Shown here: positions 1 through 24,737 of the stretch, piece by piece | Layout: every line of letters starts with the position of its first letter | Position numbering within the stretch: position 1 is the stretch's first letter | IMG/VR virus record: IMGVR_UViG_3300026280_000003 | DNA length: 24,737 bases | Direction: 5' to 3' (one strand) | Source: a virus | The notes under the pieces: model-generated | The model's input: only the letters and a program-made list of their open reading frames with translations | The model's database searches: none | What the model was told of the DNA's origin: nothing | Program-made: the position numbers and the translations under genes

Positions 1-99
1 ATACGAGAGCCGTCGAGCAGGCTCAGAATTTGTTCCGCTCTTTGTTCGAAGAAGTAAACATTGTTCGTGCTCAAAATTTCCTTGACGAGCTCCAATGCG
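1..99. repeat. Terminal direct repeat: window bases 1-99 are identical to 24639-24737 (circular-contig overlap or terminal redundancy)
   Basis: Compared the first 99 bases with the last 99 bases by eye; exact match. The terminase reading frame is continuous across the junction. Confidence 0.9.
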
Positions 100-3639: not shown

Positions 3640-3896
3640 TCCTCCTTGAGCTTCTCCCAATCTGTCGGTTGTGGACGTGGGCTTGAAGATTTCTTTTGAA
3701 GTTCCTTCAGTAGGACTAACAATATTTCTTGTTGCTTTGCCATCTGCTCCTCGAGCTTTTCTATTCGCTCAAGGAGCATCCTTTCGGCGCGGGAGAGTCT
3801 TCCTGACGAACGGGGCGTGAGACCCCGTTCGTGGTAGAAATCGAGCCAATCAGAAGACACAGGGAAATCGATGTAGTCTTCATTCATGCGAATCAC
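3636..3896 (-). CDS. Hypothetical protein (86 aa) with a coiled-coil segment
   Basis: ORF track; translationally coupled to the ATPase gene; no recognisable motif. Confidence 0.4.
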   Translation of the reverse strand: MIRMNEDYIDFPVSSDWLDFYHERGLTPRSSGRLSRAERMLLERIEKLEEQMAKQQEILLVLLKELQKKSSSPRPQPTDWEKLKEE

Positions 3897-4611
3897 CGTC
3901 TTGCGAGCGTGTTTCGGATAACAATGTTTGTAGCTCGTCTATCAATTTGGATGCTTGAGCTTTTGTTAGCTCTGACGAACTTTGTACGCCGTATCTTTGT
4001 TTGATATCGGCGACAATTTCTTCAACAGAGCATTCGGCTTCTTTTGCGAGATCGTGGATAAGGTGCGTGATCATTTTGATTTGCTTCTCCGTCGCAAGTT
4101 CTTGTTTTTGCGTCTGTTGCGCCGGCTTTTGCTCTGCTTCGGTGGTTTCCATATCTTCTAAGTCTTGGGTGAAAACATTTGAGGCTCCGAGCCCAGTCAA
4201 AACGGCGTCGACGTGTGCACGTTTCTTAGCCATTTTTAATATTGTGTTTGCGTTTCCAAGAGGATTATCGCTCCAATGACGTTTTTCCTTGCTGTTGCAC
4301 GAGCCGAATCCTTCTCCCACGACCTGACCAGACGCGGTTGTGAGTGTAGCCTTGAACATGTAATAAACATAGTTTTCTTCCTCAATCGCTTTTAGGAGCT
4401 CAAAATGTGGTATGAGATTGAAAAGGCGCGTGAGTTTCTCGGCACCCGACTTGTAGAGCGATGGTTTCCCTTCGCGTTTCCCGTGCGGGAAACCGTAATC
4501 GACGTCCGCTTCAAGAACTTCTTTTTGTAACAGTCTGAAGAGATCGTACTGTTCCTTCAGCGCCGTGATTTCTTGCTGTGTTACTGAGATAAGTTTTGGC
4601 AAGTCACTCAT
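3880..4611 (-). CDS. Hypothetical protein, possibly a single-strand annealing / recombination protein (ERF-like?)
   Basis: Track ORF 3880..4620 begins at a GTG that is part of GGAGGTGA; the ATG 9 nt downstream is the likely start. Sits between the resolvase and the replication ATPase. The YYMFKATLTTASG segment resembles, from memory only, the ERF core. Confidence 0.3.
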   Translation of the reverse strand: MSDLPKLISVTQQEITALKEQYDLFRLLQKEVLEADVDYGFPHGKREGKPSLYKSGAEKLTRLFNLIPHFELLKAIEEENYVYYMFKATLTTASGQVVGEGFGSCNSKEKRHWSDNPLGNANTILKMAKKRAHVDAVLTGLGASNVFTQDLEDMETTEAEQKPAQQTQKQELATEKQIKMITHLIHDLAKEAECSVEEIVADIKQRYGVQSSSELTKAQASKLIDELQTLLSETRSQDGDSHE

Positions 4612-4804
4612 TTTCTTCACCTCCCAAAACTTTCTTCAGTTCCTCGTAGAAGGCTTGTGCCTCGTCCTTTTCGAAGGTTTCCGTGCTCCCGTCTACGAAC
4701 TGGATCTGCAACAGCGGGCCGCGCGCGAAGACGTACGTTATCGCGGATACGTTGTTCGTGTTCAGCCAAATAACACTTTGCTCTTTCTGTAGCCTCACCC
4801 ACAT
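4604..4804 (-). CDS. Hypothetical small protein (66 aa)
   Basis: ATG start; preferred over an overlapping Arg-rich alternative frame (4617..4832). Confidence 0.4.
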   Translation of the reverse strand: MWVRLQKEQSVIWLNTNNVSAITYVFARGPLLQIQFVDGSTETFEKDEAQAFYEELKKVLGGEENE

Positions 4805-4852
4805 GCCTTCGCCTGCCTCCCTCAGGCTCCACCTCCTCCTGAGTTTTCTACA

Positions 4853-4881
4853 TCTAACATAGTGGGAGGGACTATGTTAGA
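4853..4881. promoter_or_regulatory. Perfect 11-bp inverted repeat TCTAACATAGT-GGGAGGG-ACTATGTTAGA in the 5' region of the leftward operon (operator or RNA hairpin)
   Basis: Arms are exact reverse complements; the 7-nt loop GGGAGGG is SD-like on one strand. About 50 nt upstream of the ATG at 4804. Confidence 0.5.
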
Positions 4882-4972
4882 CGTGCTAAAGTTTTTCGAA
4901 TCTCGCTAAGATAATATCGACTAAGTTTTGCGATCGCATGAAGCTACCGTAACGATCCCCAAACGCATAGCT

Positions 4973-5062
4973 GAAAAACACGTGAATTTATCATAGGGAG
5001 AAAAACACGTGGTATGATAGAATTGAAAGAAAATAGTTGTGGTAAACTCCAGGTGTGGTAAA
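4973..5062. repeat. Direct repeats in an AT-rich intergenic region: GAAAAACACGTG x2 (27-bp period) and TGTGGTAAA x2 (16-bp period)
   Basis: Copies at about 4973-4984 and 5000-5011; and at about 5038-5046 and 5054-5062. TGTGGTAAACT recurs on the opposite strand at about 5477-5488, just upstream of the resolvase gene. Confidence 0.5.
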
Positions 5063-5092
5063 ATAGAATATTAGCCTGCTCCACCTCCCTTC

Positions 5093-5129
5093 AAATAGAA
5101 AAAGCGCTTTAACCCTCCTTTGGGAGGGT
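5093..5129 (-). terminator. Putative intrinsic terminator/attenuator overlapping the 3' end of the resolvase gene
   Basis: Minus-strand hairpin ACCCTCC-CAAA-GGAGGGT followed by the palindrome AAAGCGCTTT and a T-rich run TTTTTCTATTT. Confidence 0.45.
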
Positions 5130-5459
5130 ATTTCGTTTCAAAAGTTTCTTCAGGGTCTCTAACTCCATGCAAACAATCCAATCTTTTCTGTCTGCTCTAA
5201 CAAAGAGCAAATCCGCGCGCTCAAGGAAACGATACAGCGTTTCAAAACCGCGTGCGCGCCTCTTGACCTCTACGACCCACTGCGGATGTCCCTTTTCGAA
5301 AACGACGACATCGCCTTTTTGGAACTCGGACGCTCCCGAAAGTGGGACGCGTTTTGCGTCGAAACCGAGCTCGCGAAGGATTTCTTCTGCCTCCTTCTCG
5401 CCACGGTATCCTTTTCTCCGCGAAAGCTTTCCCACAAACAATCCCCCCTTCTCTGCCAT
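5109..5459 (-). CDS. Holliday-junction resolvase, archaeal Hjc-type PD-(D/E)xK nuclease
   Basis: Pattern GYRGEKEAEEILRELGFDAKRVPLSGASEFQKGDVVVF...VVEVK matches the Hjc arrangement (G..E...L...GF...R...SG......D....(E)xK). Likely start is the ATG at about 5459 (RBS GAAGGGG); the track ORF begins at a GTG at 5465. Confidence 0.55.
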   Translation of the reverse strand: MAEKGGLFVGKLSRRKGYRGEKEAEEILRELGFDAKRVPLSGASEFQKGDVVVFEKGHPQWVVEVKRRARGFETLYRFLERADLLFVRADRKDWIVCMELETLKKLLKRNTLPKEG

Positions 5460-5549
5460 TTGCACCCCTTCAACAATAGTTTACCACATGAACGGCGCGG
5501 TGGCTAAGGGAGGAGAACATGGGTTGCGCTTTCTCGGTTTCATCATTCT

Positions 5550-5614
5550 GCAATGTACTTGATCGCAAGTCGTTACGGAGTCTACATTATGTCGCAATGT
5601 AGGGGGGGTATAAT
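5550..5614 (+). promoter_or_regulatory. Control region for the plus-strand operon: three AATGTA half-sites, including the inverted repeat CTACATT-N7-AATGTAG, directly upstream of a TATAAT -10 box
   Basis: GCAATGTAC at about 5550-5558; CTACATT at about 5582-5588; AATGTAG at about 5596-5602; TATAAT at about 5609-5614. No good -35 hexamer at 17-bp spacing; the inverted repeat occupies that position. Confidence 0.5.
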
Positions 5615-5683
5615 TGGGGTGAAAAGTGTTTGAGAAGCCCCGCCGGGTGAGGTGGCGGGAAAACGGGAAAGGAGGGGTGAAGG

Positions 5684-5902
5684 ATGAAAGATGTGCGAAA
5701 AATCATTGAAGATTGGCTCGAGAACAGGATGTGGCATCTCATACCACAAGAGACACGGCAAAAAGCGGAGCAGTTGTTGCAGCAAGGGGTTGCGGGAATC
5801 GATTTAAAGGGTCTCATCATCGTGCTTCATCATTTTGTTACTGAACCGGTCGAGACTCGTTACGGAACCGACATCGTAGCGCAACGAAAGGCAGTAAAAT
5901 AA
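5684..5902 (+). CDS. Hypothetical protein (72 aa), first gene of the only plus-strand operon
   Basis: ATG preceded by GGAAAGGAGGGGTGAAGG; no recognisable motif. Confidence 0.5.
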   Translation: MKDVRKIIEDWLENRMWHLIPQETRQKAEQLLQQGVAGIDLKGLIIVLHHFVTEPVETRYGTDIVAQRKAVK

Positions 5903-5956
5903 AAGTGGAAAACAACAAATGCCGTCGGGGAACGACGGCAAAAGGGAGGGGGAAGT

Positions 5957-6310
5957 ATGGGAAAGATAACTTTAGAGTCATTGGAGGCACCCTATGTCTT
6001 AAAAGAAAGCACGTATTTCTGGCGGACGGAGCGGCATGCGGCCGCGCGCCGCAGCCGCGAGAAATACTACGTGAGCCTGGTAGAAGACTGGTTGAGGCGC
6101 CTTTGTGAACAACACGGGTTGAACCTCAGAATTGAAAAGACAGACACGAGCGTCGCGGCATACAACAAAGATGAGCAGGTATTCAAATTCACAATCAGGT
6201 TAAGTTGCCGCCACGTTTACAAGAGACAAGATGTGAAAAAGTTACTGCGGCTGGTTTCTGAAACGCAAAGGAAAGGAGGTGACGGACGTCCTCCCGCGGC
6301 AGGGGAGTAA
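5957..6310 (+). CDS. Hypothetical protein (117 aa), basic
   Basis: ATG preceded by AGGGAGGGGGAAGT; no recognisable motif. Confidence 0.5.
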   Translation: MGKITLESLEAPYVLKESTYFWRTERHAAARRSREKYYVSLVEDWLRRLCEQHGLNLRIEKTDTSVAAYNKDEQVFKFTIRLSCRHVYKRQDVKKLLRLVSETQRKGGDGRPPAAGE

Positions 6311-6339
6311 AAACGGAGAAGAGGAGGTGGAAGCCCGCG

Positions 6340-6693
6340 GTGGGAGGCGCGGGCAAGGCGATGGGAAAGGCAGAAGTACTTCAAAAGCTGCGCAAATTCT
6401 TGAGAAAGAATCTCTGGGAGATCCCCGAGGTCCAAGAAGCGGTCGCGCAGTTGGAGAGATTGGCCGCGCAGCACGATTGGTACCCCTCAGACGTGCTCAA
6501 CTTTGAAATCATGTATGAGAACAAGCCGCGAGCGCTCAGGATAATTTTCAGTGCTCCTGTTGAAACGCTCGGCGAAGACTCCGTAAAAGAGATGCACCGC
6601 TGGCAAGAAGTAATAGCGACCGCAGTCCAGTCCTTTGTTTTGAAAACCCTCGAAGCCGAAGGTCTCCCATGGGAAATTGTGAACGAGCTCTGA
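6340..6693 (+). CDS. Hypothetical protein (117 aa by the track GTG start; alternative ATG at about 6361)
   Basis: GAGGAGGTGG about 9 nt upstream of the GTG at 6340; ends at a TGA immediately before the bidirectional terminator. Confidence 0.5.
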   Translation: MGGAGKAMGKAEVLQKLRKFLRKNLWEIPEVQEAVAQLERLAAQHDWYPSDVLNFEIMYENKPRALRIIFSAPVETLGEDSVKEMHRWQEVIATAVQSFVLKTLEAEGLPWEIVNEL

Positions 6694-6710
6694 AAAAGCA
6701 CCGCACTGCG

Positions 6711-6741
6711 AAAAGGTCCGCTCACGAGGAGCGGACCTTTT
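6711..6741. terminator. Bidirectional intrinsic terminator between convergent genes
   Basis: AAAA-GGTCCGCTC-ACGAG-GAGCGGACC-TTTT: 9-bp perfect GC-rich stem flanked by an A-tract and a T-tract; located between the plus-strand stop at 6693 and the minus-strand stop at 6744. Confidence 0.8.
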
Positions 6742-6743
6742 GC

Positions 6744-7244
6744 TCAAATCTCGTCGACGTCCAGCACGTCGAAGCGGGTGTATCCGCCAAGCACAAGCGC
6801 TGATTCGATCGCTTCATCGATCATGAAATAACGTTTCGGCAAGAGTACGAACGGTGTGAACATGCGGTATTCGTATTGATACGTGCTTTCGTCGCGCACG
6901 ATGGCAAAAACGTGATTTCGTTCGGGGCGTTTGTGTACCCCTGTGATGTAATATGCCTTCCTCCCGAGCGCCTGCGCGAGCCTGCACACAGCAAGAGCGA
7001 AATCGTCGCAATCTCCTCCGCCGCGCCTTACGAACGCTGGCAAGTCGTATTGGATGTCGAGAAGTCCCCACAGCGGGTCGGGAATGTAGCGAAAGCGCGT
7101 CATGAAGTTTGCGACATCGTCGAGCGTGCGCATCTTGTATGCCTCGGCAATTTTCCTCGCGTACTCCTTTGCGCCTTTTTTGCCTTTTCGAAAGAGCATT
7201 TTCAAGCGGACGTAGAGGCCGAGCATGCCATGGCCACCCCTCAT
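6744..7244 (-). CDS. Transglutaminase-like cysteine peptidase fold protein, last gene of the lysis cassette
   Basis: GGGDCDDFALAVCRLAQALG matches the transglutaminase-core active-site pattern G-x-C-x-x-F-A; a downstream His (NHVFAIV) and Asp candidates are present. ATGA overlap with the upstream small membrane ORF. Confidence 0.5.
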   Translation of the reverse strand: MRGGHGMLGLYVRLKMLFRKGKKGAKEYARKIAEAYKMRTLDDVANFMTRFRYIPDPLWGLLDIQYDLPAFVRRGGGDCDDFALAVCRLAQALGRKAYYITGVHKRPERNHVFAIVRDESTYQYEYRMFTPFVLLPKRYFMIDEAIESALVLGGYTRFDVLDVDEI

Positions 7245-7411
7245 TTTGTGAACTTGCTCGCCACATTGCTGCCGCAGTAGATTCCGAACAACGCGATAAC
7301 GACGTGGGAAAAGTTATCGTTGTCGATCTTGTCGAAAACTTTGAGGAGAAAAAAAGCCGCAATGAGAAGCAGCGCCAAGATGAATTTGCGGCTTTTCCAC
7401 TTCTCTTCCAT
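7241..7411 (-). CDS. Small two-TM membrane protein (56 aa), holin-like
   Basis: Hand-translated: MEEKWKSRKFILALLLIAAFFLLKVFDKIDNDNFSHVVIALFGIYCGSNVASKFTK. RBS GAGGTGA; two hydrophobic segments; stop overlaps the next start. Not in the ORF track (under 60 aa). Confidence 0.45.
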   Translation of the reverse strand: MEEKWKSRKFILALLLIAAFFLLKVFDKIDNDNFSHVVIALFGIYCGSNVASKFTK

Positions 7412-7415
7412 ACGG

Positions 7416-7778
7416 TCACCTCACGAAGAGCAAAACGAGCGTTCCTATCGTGATCGCTCCGACGACAATCCATGCAACTCTTTTTTGTTTGTCTAACTCT
7501 GTTTTCAGCCTCTGTACTTCTTCAGCAAGCGCTTTCTTTTCCGCTTTCTCGAGCTCCAGCATATCGCGCAAAACTTGCACTTGTTGTTCGAGATTCGCAA
7601 TTTGCGCGCGATAGTTCTGATTCAGCTCCTCCAGCTGTTTGATGTAGTTTGCGAGCAAAATCACCGTTTCTTCGTCGAGATAATATCTGCCGTCCTCGGC
7701 ACGCTGAATGATTTTGTATTCGGCGAAGAGAGAAACGACGGCAAAGAGGATCAACAATATCAGAAGCCTCTTCATCAC
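7416..7778 (-). CDS. Membrane protein with N-terminal signal/TM, central coiled coil and C-terminal TM; spanin-like (unimolecular-spanin architecture, no lipobox Cys)
   Basis: MMKRLLILLILFAVVSLFA... then heptad-rich QLEELNQNYRAQIANLEQQVQVLRDMLELEKAEKKALAEEVQRLKTELDKQ, then WIVVGAITIGTLVLLFV; RBS GGAGGGATCGTG. Confidence 0.45.
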   Translation of the reverse strand: MMKRLLILLILFAVVSLFAEYKIIQRAEDGRYYLDEETVILLANYIKQLEELNQNYRAQIANLEQQVQVLRDMLELEKAEKKALAEEVQRLKTELDKQKRVAWIVVGAITIGTLVLLFVR

Positions 7779-7891
7779 GATCCCTCCAGTCGGAAACCTT
7801 CTTCTTTTATCTCGAACTTTGTTAGCTTACCATCCTTTAAAAGCGCACAACAAAGTCTGCCTTGCTCGTTTACATATGCCCATACACGCAT

Positions 7892-7993
7892 TCACATCAA
7901 GCTCCTTACGATGATTTCGTAGATCTGCACGACGCTATCGAATGCGGAAGCTACTACCGCCACCAGAAGCAACAACACCACGAGGCATCTCAT
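7892..7993 (-). CDS. Small hydrophobic peptide (33 aa)
   Basis: Hand-translated: MRCLVVLLLLVAVVASAFDSVVQIYEIIVRSLM. Strong RBS AAAGGAGG 8 nt upstream; not in the ORF track (under 60 aa). Confidence 0.3.
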   Translation of the reverse strand: MRCLVVLLLLVAVVASAFDSVVQIYEIIVRSLM

Positions 7994-8008
7994 GATTTCG
8001 CCTCCTTT

Positions 8009-8320
8009 TCACTTTTTAAGTTTCTTTAGTACCTCGTTCAAGTACTCAATCGCCTCATCCACGTTGTTGAAGTGCTTTTTGTCGTAGATGATCTTTTCCT
8101 CTGCTTTGAGCTTTTCAAGCTCTTTTTCAAGCTTATCAAGCTCCGCTGTCTTACGTTTTTTAATCTCCTCTAACTCTGTTTTCAGCTGTTGCCTTTGCTT
8201 TTTCTTCGCTAACTCCGCTCCGCCGACGAACGCGACTAACGCGAGGATGAGCCACCAAAACCGCTTGACGAATTCTGTTGACGCTTTGAAAAACTCTTTA
8301 ATCACCTTCACTATTTTCAT
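8009..8320 (-). CDS. Type-II membrane-anchored coiled-coil protein (about 103 aa), i-spanin-like
   Basis: Likely ATG start at about 8320 (RBS GGAAGGTGAG); the track ORF extends to 8380. N-terminal TM FWWLILALVAFVGGA followed by a Lys/Glu-rich coiled coil. Confidence 0.45.
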   Translation of the reverse strand: MKIVKVIKEFFKASTEFVKRFWWLILALVAFVGGAELAKKKQRQQLKTELEEIKKRKTAELDKLEKELEKLKAEEKIIYDKKHFNNVDEAIEYLNEVLKKLKK

Positions 8321-8696
8321 TCGTCTCACCTTCCTTCGTGAGTAGTAAATCAACCAACCTGCGCGCTTGTTCGTTTGCAAGGAAGCTCACAAGACCCGTG
8401 GCGATCGCATCAACAAAATGTTCGTTCTTTCGCACACTGTGCCGCAAAGACTCATGACCCGTTATGTACCCAATTGCGTGCAAGACTTCGTGAAACAATG
8501 TTTGTGCAAACTGAGTTCGTGAGAGAAGCGGAGACACGTAGATGCGAGCATCCTCGAGGTCATAAGCGACGTGAAGTCCTTGTGTGGTTTCAATTTCCAA
8601 GCCTTCCTCTTCGCACGCCTCGGAAAGTTTTTGTTCGTCGCATATAATTCTGTATGGAACGCCTAAAATCCTTACACTTATCTCAAATCCTTTCAT
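8298..8696 (-). CDS. HExxH zinc-metallopeptidase-like protein (132 aa), translationally coupled to the endolysin
   Basis: Motif TLFHEVLHAIGYITGHE (HExxH plus a downstream His/Glu); the start ATG overlaps the endolysin stop (ATGA). Confidence 0.5.
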   Translation of the reverse strand: MKGFEISVRILGVPYRIICDEQKLSEACEEEGLEIETTQGLHVAYDLEDARIYVSPLLSRTQFAQTLFHEVLHAIGYITGHESLRHSVRKNEHFVDAIATGLVSFLANEQARRLVDLLLTKEGETNENSEGD

Positions 8697-9187
8697 CGCT
8701 TACCCTCCCCTTTGAGTCGCCAAAACTCGCTCCAAAAGAGGAAATCAATCAAGTGCGCTTTTGTCTCTTGCGGTACAGCTTCATCGATTTTGCAATTCGA
8801 CGGATCTCGCATCGCCAGCCAATTCAAAACGTTCCCAATACCCCAATTGTATGCCATGACCGCGAGAATGTCGGCACGTTCGTAGTCGAAAAACATTCTG
8901 TAAAGACGTCTAAGATAGCGAATCCCAACAAAGATGTTGCGGTCTGGTCTAAACATGTCATCGTAGTCGAAGTTTGTTGAATAAATCTGGTTTATATCCT
9001 CGAGCGCCGCGCGCGAGACCTGCATAAGTCCTCTCGCATATCCCGAATCCGCGTTAGGATCCCAGGCGCTTTCGGTTTCAATCAGCGCAAAAACGTGGTG
9101 CAACTTCGGAAAGTCCGCGACCTTGTACGCCGTCACAAAGTCAACATAGTGTGCCTCAACTAAGTGTTCAAGCATTTTTCTTGTCAT
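8693..9187 (-). CDS. Endolysin, lytic transglycosylase (SLT domain)
   Basis: Family-1 lytic transglycosylase motifs: ETES (catalytic Glu), GLMQV, and AYNWG; no signal peptide or TM segment. Confidence 0.8.
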   Translation of the reverse strand: MTRKMLEHLVEAHYVDFVTAYKVADFPKLHHVFALIETESAWDPNADSGYARGLMQVSRAALEDINQIYSTNFDYDDMFRPDRNIFVGIRYLRRLYRMFFDYERADILAVMAYNWGIGNVLNWLAMRDPSNCKIDEAVPQETKAHLIDFLFWSEFWRLKGEGKR

Positions 9188-9191
9188 GTCC

Positions 9192-9422
9192 TCACCTCCT
9201 CAGAAGGAAGGAAATTAACAAACTTATAACCGCCGAGGAAGTGAGAACCGCGAGAAAGATTTCACCGACCATGGCTTTCACGACGCCACGAACACGATTT
9301 TCCAAGTAGCCGTTTAGACGATCGGACAAGGACTTGAGTTGCTGTTTTATCTCCTCGATGTCCTTTTCCTGTGCCTTTAACAGTGTTTCAACCGCCGCAA
9401 TTCTTTCGCACAAGTTGTCCAT
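9192..9422 (-). CDS. Small tail-anchored membrane protein (76 aa), holin-like candidate
   Basis: N-terminal coiled coil and C-terminal TM (IFLAVLTSSAVISLLISFLL) ending in RR; RBS GAGGTGG; immediately upstream of the endolysin. Confidence 0.4.
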   Translation of the reverse strand: MDNLCERIAAVETLLKAQEKDIEEIKQQLKSLSDRLNGYLENRVRGVVKAMVGEIFLAVLTSSAVISLLISFLLRR

Positions 9423-9478: not shown

Positions 9479-10273
9479 TTATTTTACTTCGACAAGTCTA
9501 ACTTCTTTTTTCTTCTCTTCTCTGTAAAGCTTCACGATCACATGGCATCTGGGAACAAGCGGAAACAGCTTTTGATCCGCATACTTTGCTCGCGCCCACG
9601 CCGACACGCAGACATGAAGAATGTTTCTTTCAATCACTTTCTTGTTCAGAGGATCATACTCCTCGACCGCCGTCATCGCGGTCATTGGCGCGTGCGTGTG
9701 CCCCGTGATGTAAATATCTGCGCGCTGGATTCGTTCGAAAAAGTATCTGTGTTGACGTACGGAGCGTTCTGGAAAACGTCCTCCCGCAACGCCGTGATGG
9801 CATACAATCGAATACTGTGTACGTCCTCTTGAACCGCGCGCAGAGCCGTTCAAAGCTACGTCGACGATCAAAAAATCATCACTGAACGGTACGCCTAACT
9901 CTGTGCAAATCAAGCGAATCGGATCCACACCCGCGACGCGCCACGTGCGACGCTCGTGATTTCCTCCCACAACACCCAAGATGCGTTCTTTCCAGCGCCG
10001 AAGAATGTTAGTCACTTCTTCTATCGCTCGGTGCGGAGGCCTGTCCTGCGAATACACGTCACCGATACTCGAGATTATCGCGTTGTCGATCAAGTCGCCT
10101 AACAGAATTAGCTTGTATTCAGGGTGCATATCCACGAACGCGACAGCTTCGTGAAAGTAACTTCCCGTCTCGCCGATGTGAAGATCCCCGAGAGGCAAGA
10201 TCTCGACCTCGCTTGTGTCGAGGTCATAGCGAACAACACGGCTGATGTCATGCTCCCCCCGCGCCTTGCTCAT
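9479..10273 (-). CDS. Calcineurin-like metallophosphoesterase
   Basis: All signature motifs in order: GDLHIG (GDxH), GDLIDN (GDxxD), GGNHE (GNHE), CHHG, GHTH (GHxH). ATGA overlap with the upstream 56-aa ORF. Confidence 0.8.
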   Translation of the reverse strand: MSKARGEHDISRVVRYDLDTSEVEILPLGDLHIGETGSYFHEAVAFVDMHPEYKLILLGDLIDNAIISSIGDVYSQDRPPHRAIEEVTNILRRWKERILGVVGGNHERRTWRVAGVDPIRLICTELGVPFSDDFLIVDVALNGSARGSRGRTQYSIVCHHGVAGGRFPERSVRQHRYFFERIQRADIYITGHTHAPMTAMTAVEEYDPLNKKVIERNILHVCVSAWARAKYADQKLFPLVPRCHVIVKLYREEKKKEVRLVEVK

Positions 10274-20603: not shown

Positions 20604-21758
20604 TTACTTCCAGCGCATTTGTTTAGCCACAATATCAACAATGTCAGCGCTATCTGGGTTCACGAATTGACGTACCAAATTGCGTTTCGTGTGCTCTGCG
20701 AGTTTCAAGATACTTTCTTTGTCCATCTTACCTTCTTTGAATAGTCTAACATATTCTTCGGCAAGTGCTGGCGGTACACCTTTTTTGACTAACTCTTGTT
20801 TGAACGCGTTGAGCTCGCGCTCTCTTTCTTTCTCTTTGAATTCGTTGATCGTGTTCTCGTACTCTGTTAGCTTGTCCATAAGATGTTTGTTCATTCTTTT
20901 CAGGCGCTCGATCTCCTCGCACAACGCGACTTCGTCCGAGCCACGGAATTCTTCTCCGAACAGTTCGTAAATCTCCTTGATCTTGCGAATAACTTCGAGC
21001 TTTTCCGCGTCTGTCAGATCGACCTCAACACCACGCGCGCCATGCAGGTAAGCAAGTGCCGCGACGGCGGCGCGAAAGTAAAGGTGAAATTCTCCGTTTT
21101 CGAGTTTGCAGACTGGAAACTTGTAGGCTGCTTTCACTTCAGGAACTCCGCTGGGGCCTTCTTCAAAATCGCGCGTGTTCGCGTACAAATGACACTTCGC
21201 ATACGCTTTCCATCCTTTTTCCTCGATAATTTTGTTTCCATCCCGCGCGTCGTCCCAGTCCCATTGCTTCGTGCGCTCGGGAACAACAAGCATCCCGTTC
21301 CAACGTTTCCTCTCGCTGAGGAGTCGTCGCATACCCGAAAACATGGCGATGAAAACATCTTTGAAAGTTAGCTTCGTCTCAGGAAGCGCGGGGCGATTCG
21401 TGAGCGCGACGCCGAGCAACACGACACCGACTTCCTCTCCCGTCTCGCGGTCCACATAAGCGAAGTCGATTTCGGGGCTCACGTACTCGTACTTGTGTTC
21501 CTCTAACATTTTTTGTCCTTCCTCATTTAGTTCGAGCACTGCCCACAAGCCGTCTTCTTCGATGTAGAGCTCCTTCACGTCGCCGTACTTTTCACTTGAT
21601 TCGTGATCAATGTTCACGAACGGCTTGTAGTGTGGATAGCCTTTGTTGAAGTTCTTCACGATCTCTTCGGCGAGCTCTTTCGTAAACTCGATGGGTTCCT
21701 TTTGACCGTACACGTAGATTTTGCCGAAAGGAAGAATCTTCGCTTTCGCTAACATCAT
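20604..21758 (-). CDS. Prohead protease / scaffold protein (Mu gpI-like), with a C-terminal coiled coil
   Basis: N-terminal region VNIDHES...DGLWAVLELNEEG...YEYVSPEIDF resembles the Mu I pattern (VDYEH...DGLY...YRY.SP.F); C-terminal half is Glu/Lys-rich coiled coil. Confidence 0.6.
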   Translation of the reverse strand: MMLAKAKILPFGKIYVYGQKEPIEFTKELAEEIVKNFNKGYPHYKPFVNIDHESSEKYGDVKELYIEEDGLWAVLELNEEGQKMLEEHKYEYVSPEIDFAYVDRETGEEVGVVLLGVALTNRPALPETKLTFKDVFIAMFSGMRRLLSERKRWNGMLVVPERTKQWDWDDARDGNKIIEEKGWKAYAKCHLYANTRDFEEGPSGVPEVKAAYKFPVCKLENGEFHLYFRAAVAALAYLHGARGVEVDLTDAEKLEVIRKIKEIYELFGEEFRGSDEVALCEEIERLKRMNKHLMDKLTEYENTINEFKEKERERELNAFKQELVKKGVPPALAEEYVRLFKEGKMDKESILKLAEHTKRNLVRQFVNPDSADIVDIVAKQMRWK

Positions 21759-21759
21759 T

Positions 21760-22623
21760 TCACCTCACCGTCCTCAAAATTTCCCTCACTATTTCGACAT
21801 CCTCAGGACGCTTTTGGATCTCGGGAAGCTCAGCCATTTTGTGTTCGTCGAGAATTTCTTGCGTCTTCACGTGGTGCAATTCTGGGATTAGATAAGAGCG
21901 ACAATTCACGTGCAAAGGAGGCGTGTTCAGAGCAAGAATATCAACATTGTGAGCTGGGATGAACATTCCATGACGCTCTTGGCAAATTTCTGTTGTTCTG
22001 TCGTCCAACACGGCGGTGAATCGGTAACCTTCGATGTACTGAACAGTGTTTGCGAGATTTCCGACGTTGAAAGCGCGTGTTGTTTCGGTGCGCGCAATAG
22101 CCTTCGCGCGCTTTTTCTCGAACGCTTTGAACTGCTCTTGGATGTATTTTATCGCTTCTTCTTCGCTCATTCCGCGCAACAATGTTTGACGAACCGCGTC
22201 TGTGATCTCTGTCGCTAACGCTCGCAATTCGTATTGCGACACGCTAACCGTGTAGGACTCTAAGAATTTTAGCGCGGGTTTGTGAGCGTGAAAGACATAG
22301 TTAACCGCTTCCTCAGCGTTCTCGAAGACCTTTCCTATGACCTTCGCTAAGATTTGCCATTCACTTGTCAAAGATTGTTTGAGATACAGATAAAGCTCCT
22401 CCTCTGAGAACGTCGCTAATCTGCGTGGGCGCTTGCGAACGCTCGTGAGAACTCCTAAGCTGAAGGCGTAGAGTAGCGGGCGAAAGAGATTTTCGGCTCC
22501 TTGTTCCACATCTATCTTACCAGTGTTAAGGTAGTTGTCAAGACTTTTTTTGAACACTCTTTGCACGTTGAACAATATTTTTCGCTCCGAAGAAAGCATG
22601 AGTTTACCAACGACGCTCGACAC
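21760..22623 (-). CDS. Head morphogenesis protein (Mu F-like / SPP1 gp7 family)
   Basis: Conserved ARTETTRAFN and DDRTTEICQ...HVNCRSY motifs. Confidence 0.75.
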   Translation of the reverse strand: MSSVVGKLMLSSERKILFNVQRVFKKSLDNYLNTGKIDVEQGAENLFRPLLYAFSLGVLTSVRKRPRRLATFSEEELYLYLKQSLTSEWQILAKVIGKVFENAEEAVNYVFHAHKPALKFLESYTVSVSQYELRALATEITDAVRQTLLRGMSEEEAIKYIQEQFKAFEKKRAKAIARTETTRAFNVGNLANTVQYIEGYRFTAVLDDRTTEICQERHGMFIPAHNVDILALNTPPLHVNCRSYLIPELHHVKTQEILDEHKMAELPEIQKRPEDVEIVREILRTVR

Positions 22624-22625
22624 GA

Positions 22626-23738
22626 TTACTCCTCCAACTTCGGCAGATTTAATTCAGAGCGAATGAATTCCGCGTCCGCGACGAGGTCCAAGACGCCAAC
22701 TTCAAGTAGTTTCACGATGATATCCGTCATGGCCTGTTTGGCCTCGATGTCTTTGTCTTCCCTAATCTTGAAAAACCCATAACTCTCGATGTTCGAGAAG
22801 TTGTAGTCGAGTATTCGCGCAACAAGCTGGTCAATGAGCAATTCGGCCACATAGTTCGCCTCGGCCGCGGCGACGGACCGAAACACGTCAAGATGAGATT
22901 TTGCGAGCGCGTACGAACCAACCTTGTCCTGTTTCATGATAGCTTGCGGGATCAAAAGACCGCGCAAGATCAGCGTGTTGAGATACTCGATCGCTTGTTG
23001 GAACACGTCTCCAATATTGCGCGAGCTTTCCAAAAGTTGAACCTCATCATCTTTGTATACCGCGACAACGCCGTTGCGGTAAAGATTCTTCAACGCGTCT
23101 GCGAGAGCTTGCGTGTCGCTAACAGTCTTTCCCAGAATTGCAGGAGCCGCGAAACGTTCCATAGCCGTTGCCCAATATTTCACAAGCATGTCTTTCATCT
23201 TGAAGCGCGGATAAATGCGCGCCAACACACTCTTAGGCGCAAAAATAGAACCACGGAACAGGATCAAGCATTTTTCAACTGGGATTTCGACAACCTCGCC
23301 TGGTTGCTGGTACTTGACGGCTGTCAAAATTTGTTTGTTGTTTTCGTCCTTTTCGGTCACGAAGCTAACGCGTGTGATGTCGAGAGGTATGAGGCCTTTA
23401 AAATAAACCTTGTCTTGTTTGATTGTCCAAAGAATCTCAGCGACGCTGATTCCCCATGCGAAGTAAGAAGTGAGGAGGTTATGTAACTGTTGGCGAATCG
23501 AATAGCGCGCTTGTTCAAAGTTAGCTCTGACGAAGTTTTGTAGCTCCTCGACCGGGTTGAAGTAATCTCCAATCATGCCGAGAGTTGTGTTCGAGAGGAT
23601 GTCCAAGCCTGCGCCGATCGTCTCATCTCGCAACATCTTTTCGACGTCTTGCGCCGTGAGACGCAAAGGAACCGACTCTAAAGATGTTAGCGAAGGTAAA
23701 AGGTGTTCGCTCGCGTACTGCCGGAGATCCACACTCAT
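22626..23738 (-). CDS. Portal protein (370 aa)
   Basis: Immediately downstream of TerL with an ATGA overlap and upstream of the Mu F-like gene; assignment is by synteny and size only. Confidence 0.55.
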   Translation of the reverse strand: MSVDLRQYASEHLLPSLTSLESVPLRLTAQDVEKMLRDETIGAGLDILSNTTLGMIGDYFNPVEELQNFVRANFEQARYSIRQQLHNLLTSYFAWGISVAEILWTIKQDKVYFKGLIPLDITRVSFVTEKDENNKQILTAVKYQQPGEVVEIPVEKCLILFRGSIFAPKSVLARIYPRFKMKDMLVKYWATAMERFAAPAILGKTVSDTQALADALKNLYRNGVVAVYKDDEVQLLESSRNIGDVFQQAIEYLNTLILRGLLIPQAIMKQDKVGSYALAKSHLDVFRSVAAAEANYVAELLIDQLVARILDYNFSNIESYGFFKIREDKDIEAKQAMTDIIVKLLEVGVLDLVADAEFIRSELNLPKLEE

Positions 23739-24737
23739 ACGATCACCCTTTCAACGTGCGGTTTCACGTTTTGGCGATTCTGGTAGACCGCGTATCTGAG
23801 CGCGTCCATAGCGTGGTCCATAAATTTGACTGGTTCATCGAGTGGGTTGCCGTTTCGGTCTTCTTTCCATTTGTAGTTGCGAATCTCTTTTAGTGTATTC
23901 ACACAATGTTCGCTTATGTAGATTGTCCTGCGTTTCAGAAAATCTATGCCCGCTTTGACATCTTTCAAAGCGGGTTGGATGTTGAAGCCCGCGCGTCTGA
24001 TTTCTTCGATTCTTGCGGGTTCCGAAGAGTCAGCGAAAATTGGCGCATTGCGCTCCCGCACGAATTGCTTCAGTAAGTCAATCAACTCTGCGTTTGTTAG
24101 CTTCGTCTTATAGAGTTCGTCGAGCACCCACACGTTTTGGTCTTTGATGCCAACCTTCAGGACCACAGTGGGGTTGTTGAAACCGAAGTCGATTCCGTAT
24201 CTGATTTCGTCAAATTCGCTCGGCGCGTCTTTCACAACACGATAGTTCGTGAAGATCAGGTTTTCGGGTGTTGCAAATCTACCTTCCGCGTAGATCTCGT
24301 AGAATGTTTTGTCTTCGTTTTTTAGTGCTTCTAACTGTCTTATGTACTCCTCATCAAGGAAGGGATTGTCCCGATACGTCGTATGCAAGATCATAGCGCT
24401 TGGGTTCTGACGCTCAAAAAAGAGCTTGTACGTCCAGTTATGCACAGAAACGGGGTTGAATGCCAAAATTATTTGATTCGGAATCAGCCAACCTTTACGG
24501 CTTCTCACTTGCGGGCGTCGTAGCCTGAGCTTTAAGATTCTATAATCTTGTTCGTCGAACTCAGTCGCTTCTTCCATCCACACAATGTTAAATTCAGCGC
24601 TTTTGATCTTCTCAGGATCGTCCATTCCTCTGAAGTAGATACGAGAGCCGTCGAGCAGGCTCAGAATTTGTTCCGCTCTTTGTTCGAAGAAGTAAACATT
24701 GTTCGTGCTCAAAATTTCCTTGACGAGCTCCAATGCG
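23735..24737 (-). CDS. terL: Terminase large subunit, C-terminal segment (Walker B and nuclease domain)
   Basis: ORF track 23735..24733; IVWMEEATEFD Walker B-like motif and a C-terminal nuclease-like region (GIDFGF...); sits directly upstream of the portal-position gene. Confidence 0.85.
   Translation of the reverse strand, partial: ALELVKEILSTNNVYFFEQRAEQILSLLDGSRIYFRGMDDPEKIKSAEFNIVWMEEATEFDEQDYRILKLRLRRPQVRSRKGWLIPNQIILAFNPVSVHNWTYKLFFERQNPSAMILHTTYRDNPFLDEEYIRQLEALKNEDKTFYEIYAEGRFATPENLIFTNYRVVKDAPSEFDEIRYGIDFGFNNPTVVLKVGIKDQNVWVLDELYKTKLTNAELIDLLKQFVRERNAPIFADSSEPARIEEIRRAGFNIQPALKDVKAGIDFLKRRTIYISEHCVNTLKEIRNYKWKEDRNGNPLDEPVKFMDHAMDALRYAVYQNRQNVKPHVERVIV
24639..24737. repeat. Second copy of the 99-bp terminal repeat (identical to 1-99)
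   Basis: Exact identity with bases 1-99. Confidence 0.9.

Follow-up and report, generated by a model that had tools for sequence, protein, structure and literature searches.

A minimal zincin-like protein encoded beside the putative SLT endolysin of a probable Thermotogota phage, and its possible part in lysis

The virus record IMGVR_UViG_3300026280_000003 (IMG/VR; the whole stretch of 24,737 nucleotides is called the window here) encodes, towards the end of its late operon, a protein of 132 amino acids (aa) with an HExxH metallopeptidase motif, next to an SLT-family lytic transglycosylase. An earlier note on this DNA had described a transglycosylase with ETES, GLMQV and AYNWG motifs that ends in an ATGA overlap with the HExxH open reading frame (ORF), and we found both genes and the overlap as described, on the minus strand. 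The smaller protein, called the zincin hereafter, is a new and well-modelled member of a phage family that is catalogued but uncharacterised; it belongs to a known kind, the stand-alone zincin-like metallopeptidase, and the present finding is an annotation refinement. The junction holds the following features.

8298..8696, minus strand: predicted stand-alone minimal gluzincin, 132 aa, isoelectric point 4.9 (HEVLH motif, PHROG 1233 match, structure model)
8693..8696, minus strand: ATGA stop/start overlap of the transglycosylase and zincin genes, read from the sequence
8703..8710, minus strand: Shine-Dalgarno sequence of the zincin gene, GGGGAGGG, lying within the 3' end of the transglycosylase gene (upstream sequence aaaggggagggtaagcgATG)
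8693..9187, minus strand: SLT-family lytic transglycosylase, 164 aa, putative endolysin (Pfam SLT, PHROG 669)

Both are real genes under purifying selection. Identical or near-identical copies of the two occur on several independent metagenome contigs, and the ratio of non-synonymous to synonymous substitution rates, in a comparison with one relative (zincin 88% and SLT protein 78% identical), was 0.06 for the zincin and 0.14 for the transglycosylase. Translational coupling, which the earlier note had read from the ATGA overlap, stood in part: the overlap itself is real, but it is the default packing in this genome, where 6/33 same-strand junctions show the identical 4-nucleotide overlap and 9/33 overlap in some way, so it does not set this gene pair apart. 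Among relatives, the 4-nucleotide overlap is retained in L007, L017/L032 and L030; L025 has an overlap of 17 nucleotides and L029 a gap of 2 nucleotides. Because the zincin gene has a strong Shine-Dalgarno sequence of its own, it could also initiate translation independently. A scan for promoters and terminators between the zincin gene and its neighbours returned nothing above shuffled background, and no separate transcription unit was definable there.

The zincin carries FHEVLHAIGYITGHE at residues 68-82, with the HEVLH motif (H69-H73) encoded at 8478..8492 and the codon of a downstream glutamate, E92, at 8421..8423. An HExxH motif arose by chance in 2.9% of shuffles of the protein's His/Glu-rich composition; since 154 of the 155 detected relatives carry one, the motif is not a product of chance. 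An exhaustive profile search of 1.84 billion representatives returned 39 clusters only, and a word-indexed search with the family alignment returned 122 proteins; the hits of both searches are almost all stand-alone proteins of 67-204 aa, and one protein of 2,524 aa has a weak match over about 40 residues. Across the 155 relatives, conservation reached 100% at H69, 99% at E70 and H73, 97% at G40, 96% at T66, 95% at E92 and 92% at I52, such that the catalytic signature noticed earlier is intact at family level. The histidine of the neighbouring 'GHE', which had been counted as part of the motif, fared differently, as H81 is kept in just 12% of relatives. The distance from HExxH to the conserved glutamate varies between 11 and 25 residues in the family and is 18 in the window protein; the resulting HExxH-x18-E pattern is a gluzincin arrangement rather than a metzincin one, with E92 as the predicted third zinc ligand.

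We built an AlphaFold2 model of the zincin with an alignment of 31 sequences, and it was confident (predicted local distance difference test 92.7, predicted template modelling score 0.85). The model has a four-stranded sheet, of which a beta hairpin supplies the first strands and, beyond an intervening helix, a further pair of strands the rest. Next along the chain come the helix bearing HExxH (residues 60-79), a short helix, a helix that starts with E92 (residues 89-106) and a last helix followed by an acidic disordered tail (residues ~122-132). The fold class assigned from this model is that of the zincins. All 132 aa form one domain; a wall-binding domain was not recognisable, and neither a signal peptide nor a transmembrane (TM) segment was found in the protein (maximum Kyte-Doolittle value 0.87). 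Wall-binding domains and export signals are common in lysins but not obligatory.

By profile, the zincin belongs to PHROG 1233, a phage family with no assigned function (E = 2.3e-9; 30/31 aligned relatives match, the best at 1.2e-21). Pfam gave only sub-threshold matches to DUF6782, Peptidase_M78 and SprT-like, NCBIfam and PADLOC gave none, and among INPHARED phages there was neither a nucleotide match to the 4-kb region nor a tblastn match to the zincin. The best PDB sequence match was IrrE (3dte; E = 0.0025), in an alignment spanning the motif G..I..TLxHExxHA, and the M78 profile (PF06114) scored 16.7 bits, below its gathering cut-off of 22, with weak matches in 17/31 relatives (best 4.4e-5); a few relatives are named ImmA in their source records or carry PF06114. 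MPTase-PolyVal was touched by one of the 31 members, and the profile of family alignment A2 weakly matched the metallopeptidase region of N4-like virion RNA polymerases. Taken together, comparisons of sequence, profile and structure placed the zincin among ImmA/IrrE (M78), SprT/Wss1, ArdC, CapP and YbeY-type minimal zincins, and families of peptidoglycan peptidases (LAS M15/M23, NlpC/P60-CHAP, amidase_2/3) were absent from the results of all these searches. Structure prediction had been suggested as a way to tell a cell-wall peptidase from an ImmA-like protein, and it gave a zincin fold with ImmA/SprT-type kin and no wall-peptidase fold.

The identity of the partner enzyme was borne out by a Pfam SLT (PF01464) match at E = 3.8e-18, whose 65.6 bits exceed the cut-off of 21.3, and a match to the endolysin family PHROG 669 at E = 1.9e-14. 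Its ETES motif occupies residues 37-40, and E39-S40 aligns to the QES of the catalytic domain of E. coli Slt70 (1sly/1qsa), as do GLMQ and AYN-G to their counterparts; we take the QES motif of Slt70 to bear the catalytic glutamate, and the predicted catalytic Glu39 of the phage protein is encoded at 9071..9073. SLT was the sole muralytic domain recognised in the closed genome, no TM helix or signal peptide was found in the protein, and the genes around it encode XhlA-like, holin-like and spanin-like membrane proteins, as judged from PHROG matches and topology. The protein is the putative endolysin of the phage.

The two genes lie in a ten-item run at the end of the late operon: tail genes, a metallophosphoesterase, a 76-aa protein, the transglycosylase, the zincin, a 103-aa protein, a 230-nucleotide gap, a 119-aa protein, a 56-aa protein and a 166-aa LapG-like protein. 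The members of this run around the pair are as follows.

9479..10273, minus strand: calcineurin-like metallophosphoesterase, 264 aa (Pfam Metallophos E = 1.3e-6; PHROG 7339 E = 6e-51)
9192..9422, minus strand: XhlA-like protein, 76 aa, with an N-terminal coiled coil and a C-terminal TM helix (PHROG 1193 'hemolysin', E = 7e-6)
8009..8320, minus strand: 103-aa protein with an N-terminal TM helix and a coiled coil, a topology like that of an inner-membrane spanin (i-spanin) (gene call, Shine-Dalgarno sequence, hydropathy)
7779..8008, no strand: intergenic variable slot of 230 nucleotides, defined by its contents in relatives
7416..7775, minus strand: 119-aa protein with an N-terminal hydrophobic segment, a coiled coil and a C-terminal TM helix (hydropathy)
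7241..7411, minus strand: small membrane protein of 56 aa, candidate holin (hydropathy; PHROG 20455 E = 2e-4)
6744..7244, minus strand: 166-aa homologue of LapG/transglutaminase-like cysteine proteases with the motif GGGDCDDFA (PDB 4fgo, E = 5e-5)

The metallophosphoesterase, whose family PHROG 7339 is annotated 'DNA repair exonuclease', is the first gene of a four-gene block and stands directly upstream of the XhlA-like, SLT and zincin genes in every SLT-linked relative, among them L007, L017/L032, L018 and L012. Lying between tail and lysis genes, it is a candidate tail enzyme, wall-polymer phosphodiesterase or nuclease. The XhlA-like protein (hydrophobic segment at residues ~47-75) is kept upstream of the transglycosylase in all relatives and is a putative lysis membrane protein. 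Downstream, the 103-aa gene starts with the ATG at 8320, behind the Shine-Dalgarno sequence GGAAGGTGAG, and overlaps the zincin ORF by 23 nucleotides; its product has weak matches to Rz-like spanin PHROGs (739, 1152), and the gene follows the zincin in the window clade, L007, L018, L025, L029 and L030.

The slot at 7779..8008 is filled by a signal-peptide-bearing serine protease (Trypsin_2, 301-307 aa) in L006 (716..1639), L008 (6495..7400), L025 (2093..2998) and L030, and by two ~200-aa paralogues in L023 (5780..6921) and L024 (3181..4316). The window clade, L007, L018 and L025 all have the 119-aa gene, which is missing, together with the 56-aa and LapG-like genes, from L017/L032. For the 56-aa protein the designation as a candidate holin is made on topology only. 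Its gene is joined by an ATGA overlap to that of the LapG-like protein, the last of the cassette, which has sub-threshold Pfam matches to Transglut_core and CEP76 peptidase-like domains and no clear signal peptide. The matched structure 4fgo is deposited as 'Periplasmic protein', and we take it to be Legionella LapG, a bacterial transglutaminase-like cysteine proteinase; the 166-aa protein could be a second lysin or a cassette protease.

An exact direct repeat of 99 nucleotides at the two ends of the window (1..99 = 24639..24737) shows that the assembly closes to a circle and gives a genome of 24,638 bp. The gene for the large terminase crosses the window ends, starting near 314 and running on to about 23735. 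The phage is a small siphovirus-type one with tape-measure, Neck1 and tail tube protein genes, and it also encodes a Mu-type portal, Mu F, a Mu gpI-like protease and an HK97-type capsid. The Mu-like genes (GemA-like domain, Mu-type portal, Mu F and Mu gpI-like protease; 3880..4620 and 20604..23738, minus strand) share the genome with an AAA_25/HTH replication protein, and the genome does not look transposable. No integrase or XRE repressor was recognisable in the closed genome, because three small ORFs of 72, 117 and 117 aa without Pfam match (5684..6693, plus strand) occupy the place at which the 63%-related phages encode a serine recombinase and a LexA-like S24 CI repressor (L007 7734..9827). 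The host is most likely a member of the Thermotogota, since a 42%-identical zincin in the same gene order occurs in a prophage remnant beside a tRNA-Glu gene in a Pseudothermotoga metagenome-assembled genome (MAG), and the best cultured-phage match of the transglycosylase is Oceanotoga phage vB_OteS-UFV02.

Across relatives, the block of metallophosphoesterase, XhlA-like, SLT and zincin genes was kept in the window clade, in L007/L027/L028, L029 and L030 (zincin identity 61-66%) and in L025 (~88-89%). It was also kept in the Pseudothermotoga prophage L017/L032 (zincin 40%) despite different upstream tail-fibre and downstream genes, and, with a damaged zincin start, in L012, a MAG contig of about 1.6x coverage in which the flanking genes differ. 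Because the block is retained where its flanks are exchanged, it behaves as a module in a mosaic background. The earlier remark that the pairing is unusual holds, and the pairing proved to be conserved within a lineage of Thermotogota phages and prophages as well; to our knowledge, such a stable embedding of a zincin beside an SLT endolysin in Thermotogota phages is undescribed in the literature searched. In a separate marine clade (33-37% identity), the zincin gene follows holin-like genes and an i-spanin gene with an embedded outer-membrane spanin (o-spanin) lipoprotein; it comes after a gene for a PD-(D/E)xK protein and just before an integrase gene. Eight marine contigs (L019, L020, L035, L037, L038, L041, L047 and L051, at about 3800..5200) share, upstream of the zincin homologue and an integrase, a compact gene set of two small holin-like membrane proteins, an 82-aa i-spanin-like gene with an out-of-frame embedded lipoprotein (LCAGC lipobox) and the PD-(D/E)xK protein, and no endolysin was recognised near the zincin homologue on the marine contigs.

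We tentatively read the zincin as an accessory protease of the lysis phase, with a protein or peptide as its substrate and not the cross-links of peptidoglycan. Its zinc binding, proteolytic activity, substrate and contribution to lysis are what we infer from the comparisons above. The protein is made late, in soluble form, in the cytoplasm, from an operon shared with the transglycosylase and the membrane proteins of the cassette. Following established zincin chemistry, H69, H73 and E92 would hold a zinc ion and E70 would activate water, and the substrate might lie as an extended strand along the edge strand at residues 50-54, which includes the near-invariant I52. The zincin could then leave with the transglycosylase through holin lesions and cut an envelope or tether protein, or it could cleave a lysis or host protein in the cytoplasm shortly before lysis. 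In our view peptidoglycan cross-links are a far less likely target than a protein or peptide, because the characterised relatives all cut proteins or RNA (their substrates are repressors, DNA-protein cross-links, polyproteins or RNA) and the zincin is a bare catalytic core.

Several observations are in line with a role in the lysis phase. The gene lies on the same strand as its neighbours and overlaps both of them, the SLT gene by 4 nucleotides and the membrane-protein gene by 23; the block is syntenic, and in the marine clade the gene again stands beside holin-like and spanin-like genes. Lacking a signal peptide is the normal state of lysis proteins released by holins, and the cassette has other protease-like genes, namely the LapG-like cysteine protease and, in relatives, the optional secreted Trypsin_2. 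Thermotogota have a largely proteinaceous outer 'toga' that is tethered to a thin peptidoglycan. A rather improbable elaboration of the lysis-phase reading is that the zincin is a 'third-step' disruptor that cuts the toga-peptidoglycan tethers after the transglycosylase has acted; it might then cooperate with the LapG-like and secreted trypsin-like proteases, and such protease-assisted disruption would complement or replace spanins and constitute a new functional class of lysis protein.

A body of observations weighs against a role in lysis. No characterised homologue ties the zincin family to lysis, synteny within one lineage can be simple inheritance, and the targets of the characterised structural relatives are, without exception, DNA-binding proteins of the cytoplasm or RNA and never envelope components. 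Identities of the two proteins are mosaic (zincin 88% and SLT 78% in L025, 64% and 78% in L007), so that the two genes do not always have one shared history; the pattern is a sign that recombination has separated them inside the cassette. In L031 and L033, whose zincins (41-44% identity) are as close as that of L017/L032, the gene has no SLT gene as its neighbour. The wider family occurs between portal and scaffold in SU10-like podophages (L009-L011), behind the portal and a head protein in a phage of C. perfringens, in the replication modules of L013, L015 and Ralstonia T7-like phages, after ParB genes in L014 and beside the CI repressor in Streptococcus prophage Javan443. The Oceanotoga phage (L016) has a non-zincin 188-aa gene after its SLT gene, and P0016, a 100-aa relative that is possibly an inactivated copy, has lost precisely the HExxH segment with its flanks conserved. 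Finally, in the IMG/VR relative L018 (4243..5267) a gene for a Dam-like methyltransferase interrupts the SLT-zincin pair, and the zincin is broken into two ORFs. Since the methyltransferase is also split into two ORFs, a sequencing (frameshift) error is likely, with decay as the other explanation, and we rejected this locus as proof that the zincin is dispensable.

The layout of the Oceanotoga phage is otherwise comparable to that of the window, with genes at 4462..7378 for a coiled-coil/C-terminal-TM protein, SLT, the 188-aa protein, a pair of small membrane proteins and one protein of 193 aa; these genes are annotated as hypothetical, and there is no zincin among them.

The family's wide spread over portal and head, replication, ParB and immunity contexts fits a different explanation, which we regard as possible if doubtful: that the zincin has nothing to do with lysis and is a generic small phage zincin, comparable to ArdC, CapP or the metallopeptidase domains of polyvalent proteins, serving in the cytoplasm as a 'conflict' or host-takeover protease, its position in the cassette being a historical accident. 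Its substrate would be a defence or regulatory protein of the host, or a phage protein that needs processing, and it might be packaged and injected, with which late expression and the lack of a signal peptide are compatible. The nearest relatives (IrrE, CapP, ArdC and Spartan/Wss1) act on intracellular proteins, and the weak A2 match to N4-like virion RNA polymerases, in their metallopeptidase region, points the same way. The core of sheet, HExxH helix and Glu helix is the commonest domain of injected polyvalent proteins, some of which join this MPTase core to a lysozyme or transglycosylase domain (Iyer et al. 2017, PMC5512222), and such fusions offer an alternative rationale for the association of SLT and zincin, at entry and not at exit. 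Against a conflict protease stand the overlaps on both sides of the gene inside a lysis cassette and its persistence with the transglycosylase where the flanks were exchanged, as well as the empty PADLOC and NCBIfam searches and the single MPTase-PolyVal contact among 31 members.

Phages commonly have multi-activity lysins, and the earlier note had proposed a two-component one; the zincin would then cut stem peptides or cross-links and the transglycosylase the glycan strands. The zincin adjoins and is co-expressed with the sole muralytic enzyme, neither protein has a signal peptide, such that both could exit through holin lesions, and a phage-derived HExxH metzincin of Listeria is reported to sensitise cells to lysins (PMC8235301). 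We nevertheless consider this proposal unlikely, as homology and fold searches gave it no support: there was no match to M15/M23, NlpC/P60-CHAP or amidase families, the zincin has no export signal, and neither the relatives at 41-44% identity nor the wider family sit next to lysins.

The second suggestion in that note, an ImmA/IrrE-like protease, was right as to kinship, given IrrE as the best PDB match and the shared motif, and probably wrong as to role. That the zincin cleaves an XRE-family repressor in a lysis-lysogeny switch would agree with the IrrE match, the weak M78 matches in 17/31 relatives, the ImmA names of some relatives and the CI neighbour of the Streptococcus prophage relative. 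The subthreshold M78 score, the lack of a C-terminal sensor or regulatory domain, the late operon location and a genome with no integrase or recognisable XRE repressor nonetheless make it very unlikely. The temperate relatives argue against it too, as they carry an S24-type CI several genes from the zincin on the opposite strand, and this CI is LexA-like and self-cleaving and needs no ImmA.

Also very unlikely, and by a small margin the least probable reading, is that the zincin is not a protease and acts as a metallo-RNase of YbeY type or, without catalysis, as a scaffold or chaperone of the transglycosylase, given a general-base glutamate that is 99% conserved, a third histidine of YbeY type (H81) in 12% of relatives compared with E92 in 95%, and invariant catalytic residues that argue against a purely structural role. 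YbeY has a glycine at the position of the general-base glutamate of HExxH, and a YbeY-like RNase as the leading interpretation was rejected on that conserved glutamate and the unconserved His triad.

Three further identities were rejected. A metzincin (HExxHxxGxxH, third His at +6) does not fit, as HEVLHAIGYITGH puts the histidine at +8, where it is kept in 12% of relatives; matches of the zincin to myroilysin and astacin were non-significant (E 0.5-0.9), and a phmmer search of the PDB with the single zincin sequence returned only non-significant myroilysin matches. A prohead protease is already encoded next to the capsid gene, in the form of the Mu gpI-like protein. An immunity or inhibitor protein for the transglycosylase was dismissed on the invariant catalytic residues and the non-periplasmic nature of the zincin.

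Should the accessory lysis-phase protease be confirmed, a lysis cassette would for the first time have been shown to include an HExxH, ImmA/SprT-like protease. This would give a handle on how phages breach the protein-rich Thermotogota envelope, and the enzymes would be thermostable ones of possible practical use. If the zincin is instead a conflict or regulatory protease, PHROG 1233, a widespread and unannotated phage family, gains a high-confidence structural model and a catalytic signature, G..I..T..HExxH..E.

Compared with known systems, the zincin departs from each in domain content or genetic setting. The M78 proteases Deinococcus IrrE/PprI, Bacillus ICEBs1 ImmA and CapP, associated with the cyclic-oligonucleotide-based anti-phage signalling system (CBASS), are 240-300 aa long, whereas the window protein has 132 aa and none of their C-terminal helical, GAF-like or HTH domains. 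It also lies in a late/lysis operon and not in a regulatory module, with the transglycosylase and a membrane protein as neighbours, no partner XRE repressor gene and no HTH_XRE protein found in the window. SprT-type enzymes use a third histidine shortly after HExxH; this position is unconserved in the zincin family, where a glutamate 11-25 residues downstream is conserved instead, and no DNA-binding domain was detected in the window protein. Unlike the MPTase/ArdC domains of polyvalent proteins, the zincin is encoded by a separate gene and is not a domain of a giant multidomain protein.

Among systems linked to lysis, the phage-derived metzincin/TIMP-like pair of Listeria includes an HExxH protease whose expression raises sensitivity to phage-mediated lysis; this protease is secreted, has a lipoprotein partner and is under CI/Cro switch control (PMC8235301), in contrast to the window zincin, which is neither secreted nor a metzincin. 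In canonical multi-activity endolysins a glycosidase is combined with an M15, M23 or CHAP enzyme, whereas the second enzyme here is an HExxH zincin of a regulatory-protease-like lineage, on a separate polypeptide and with no recognisable wall-binding domain. Membership in PHROG 1233 names the zincin without explaining its function; the other members are likewise small phage proteins that stand alone and fall in its size class, among which the SLT-linked clade forms a sub-lineage with additional conserved C28, E29, G80 and L84 (alignment A3). As in the xhlA-xhlB-xlyA cassettes of PBSX, the muralytic enzyme of this phage is flanked by XhlA-like, holin-like and spanin-like coiled-coil proteins.

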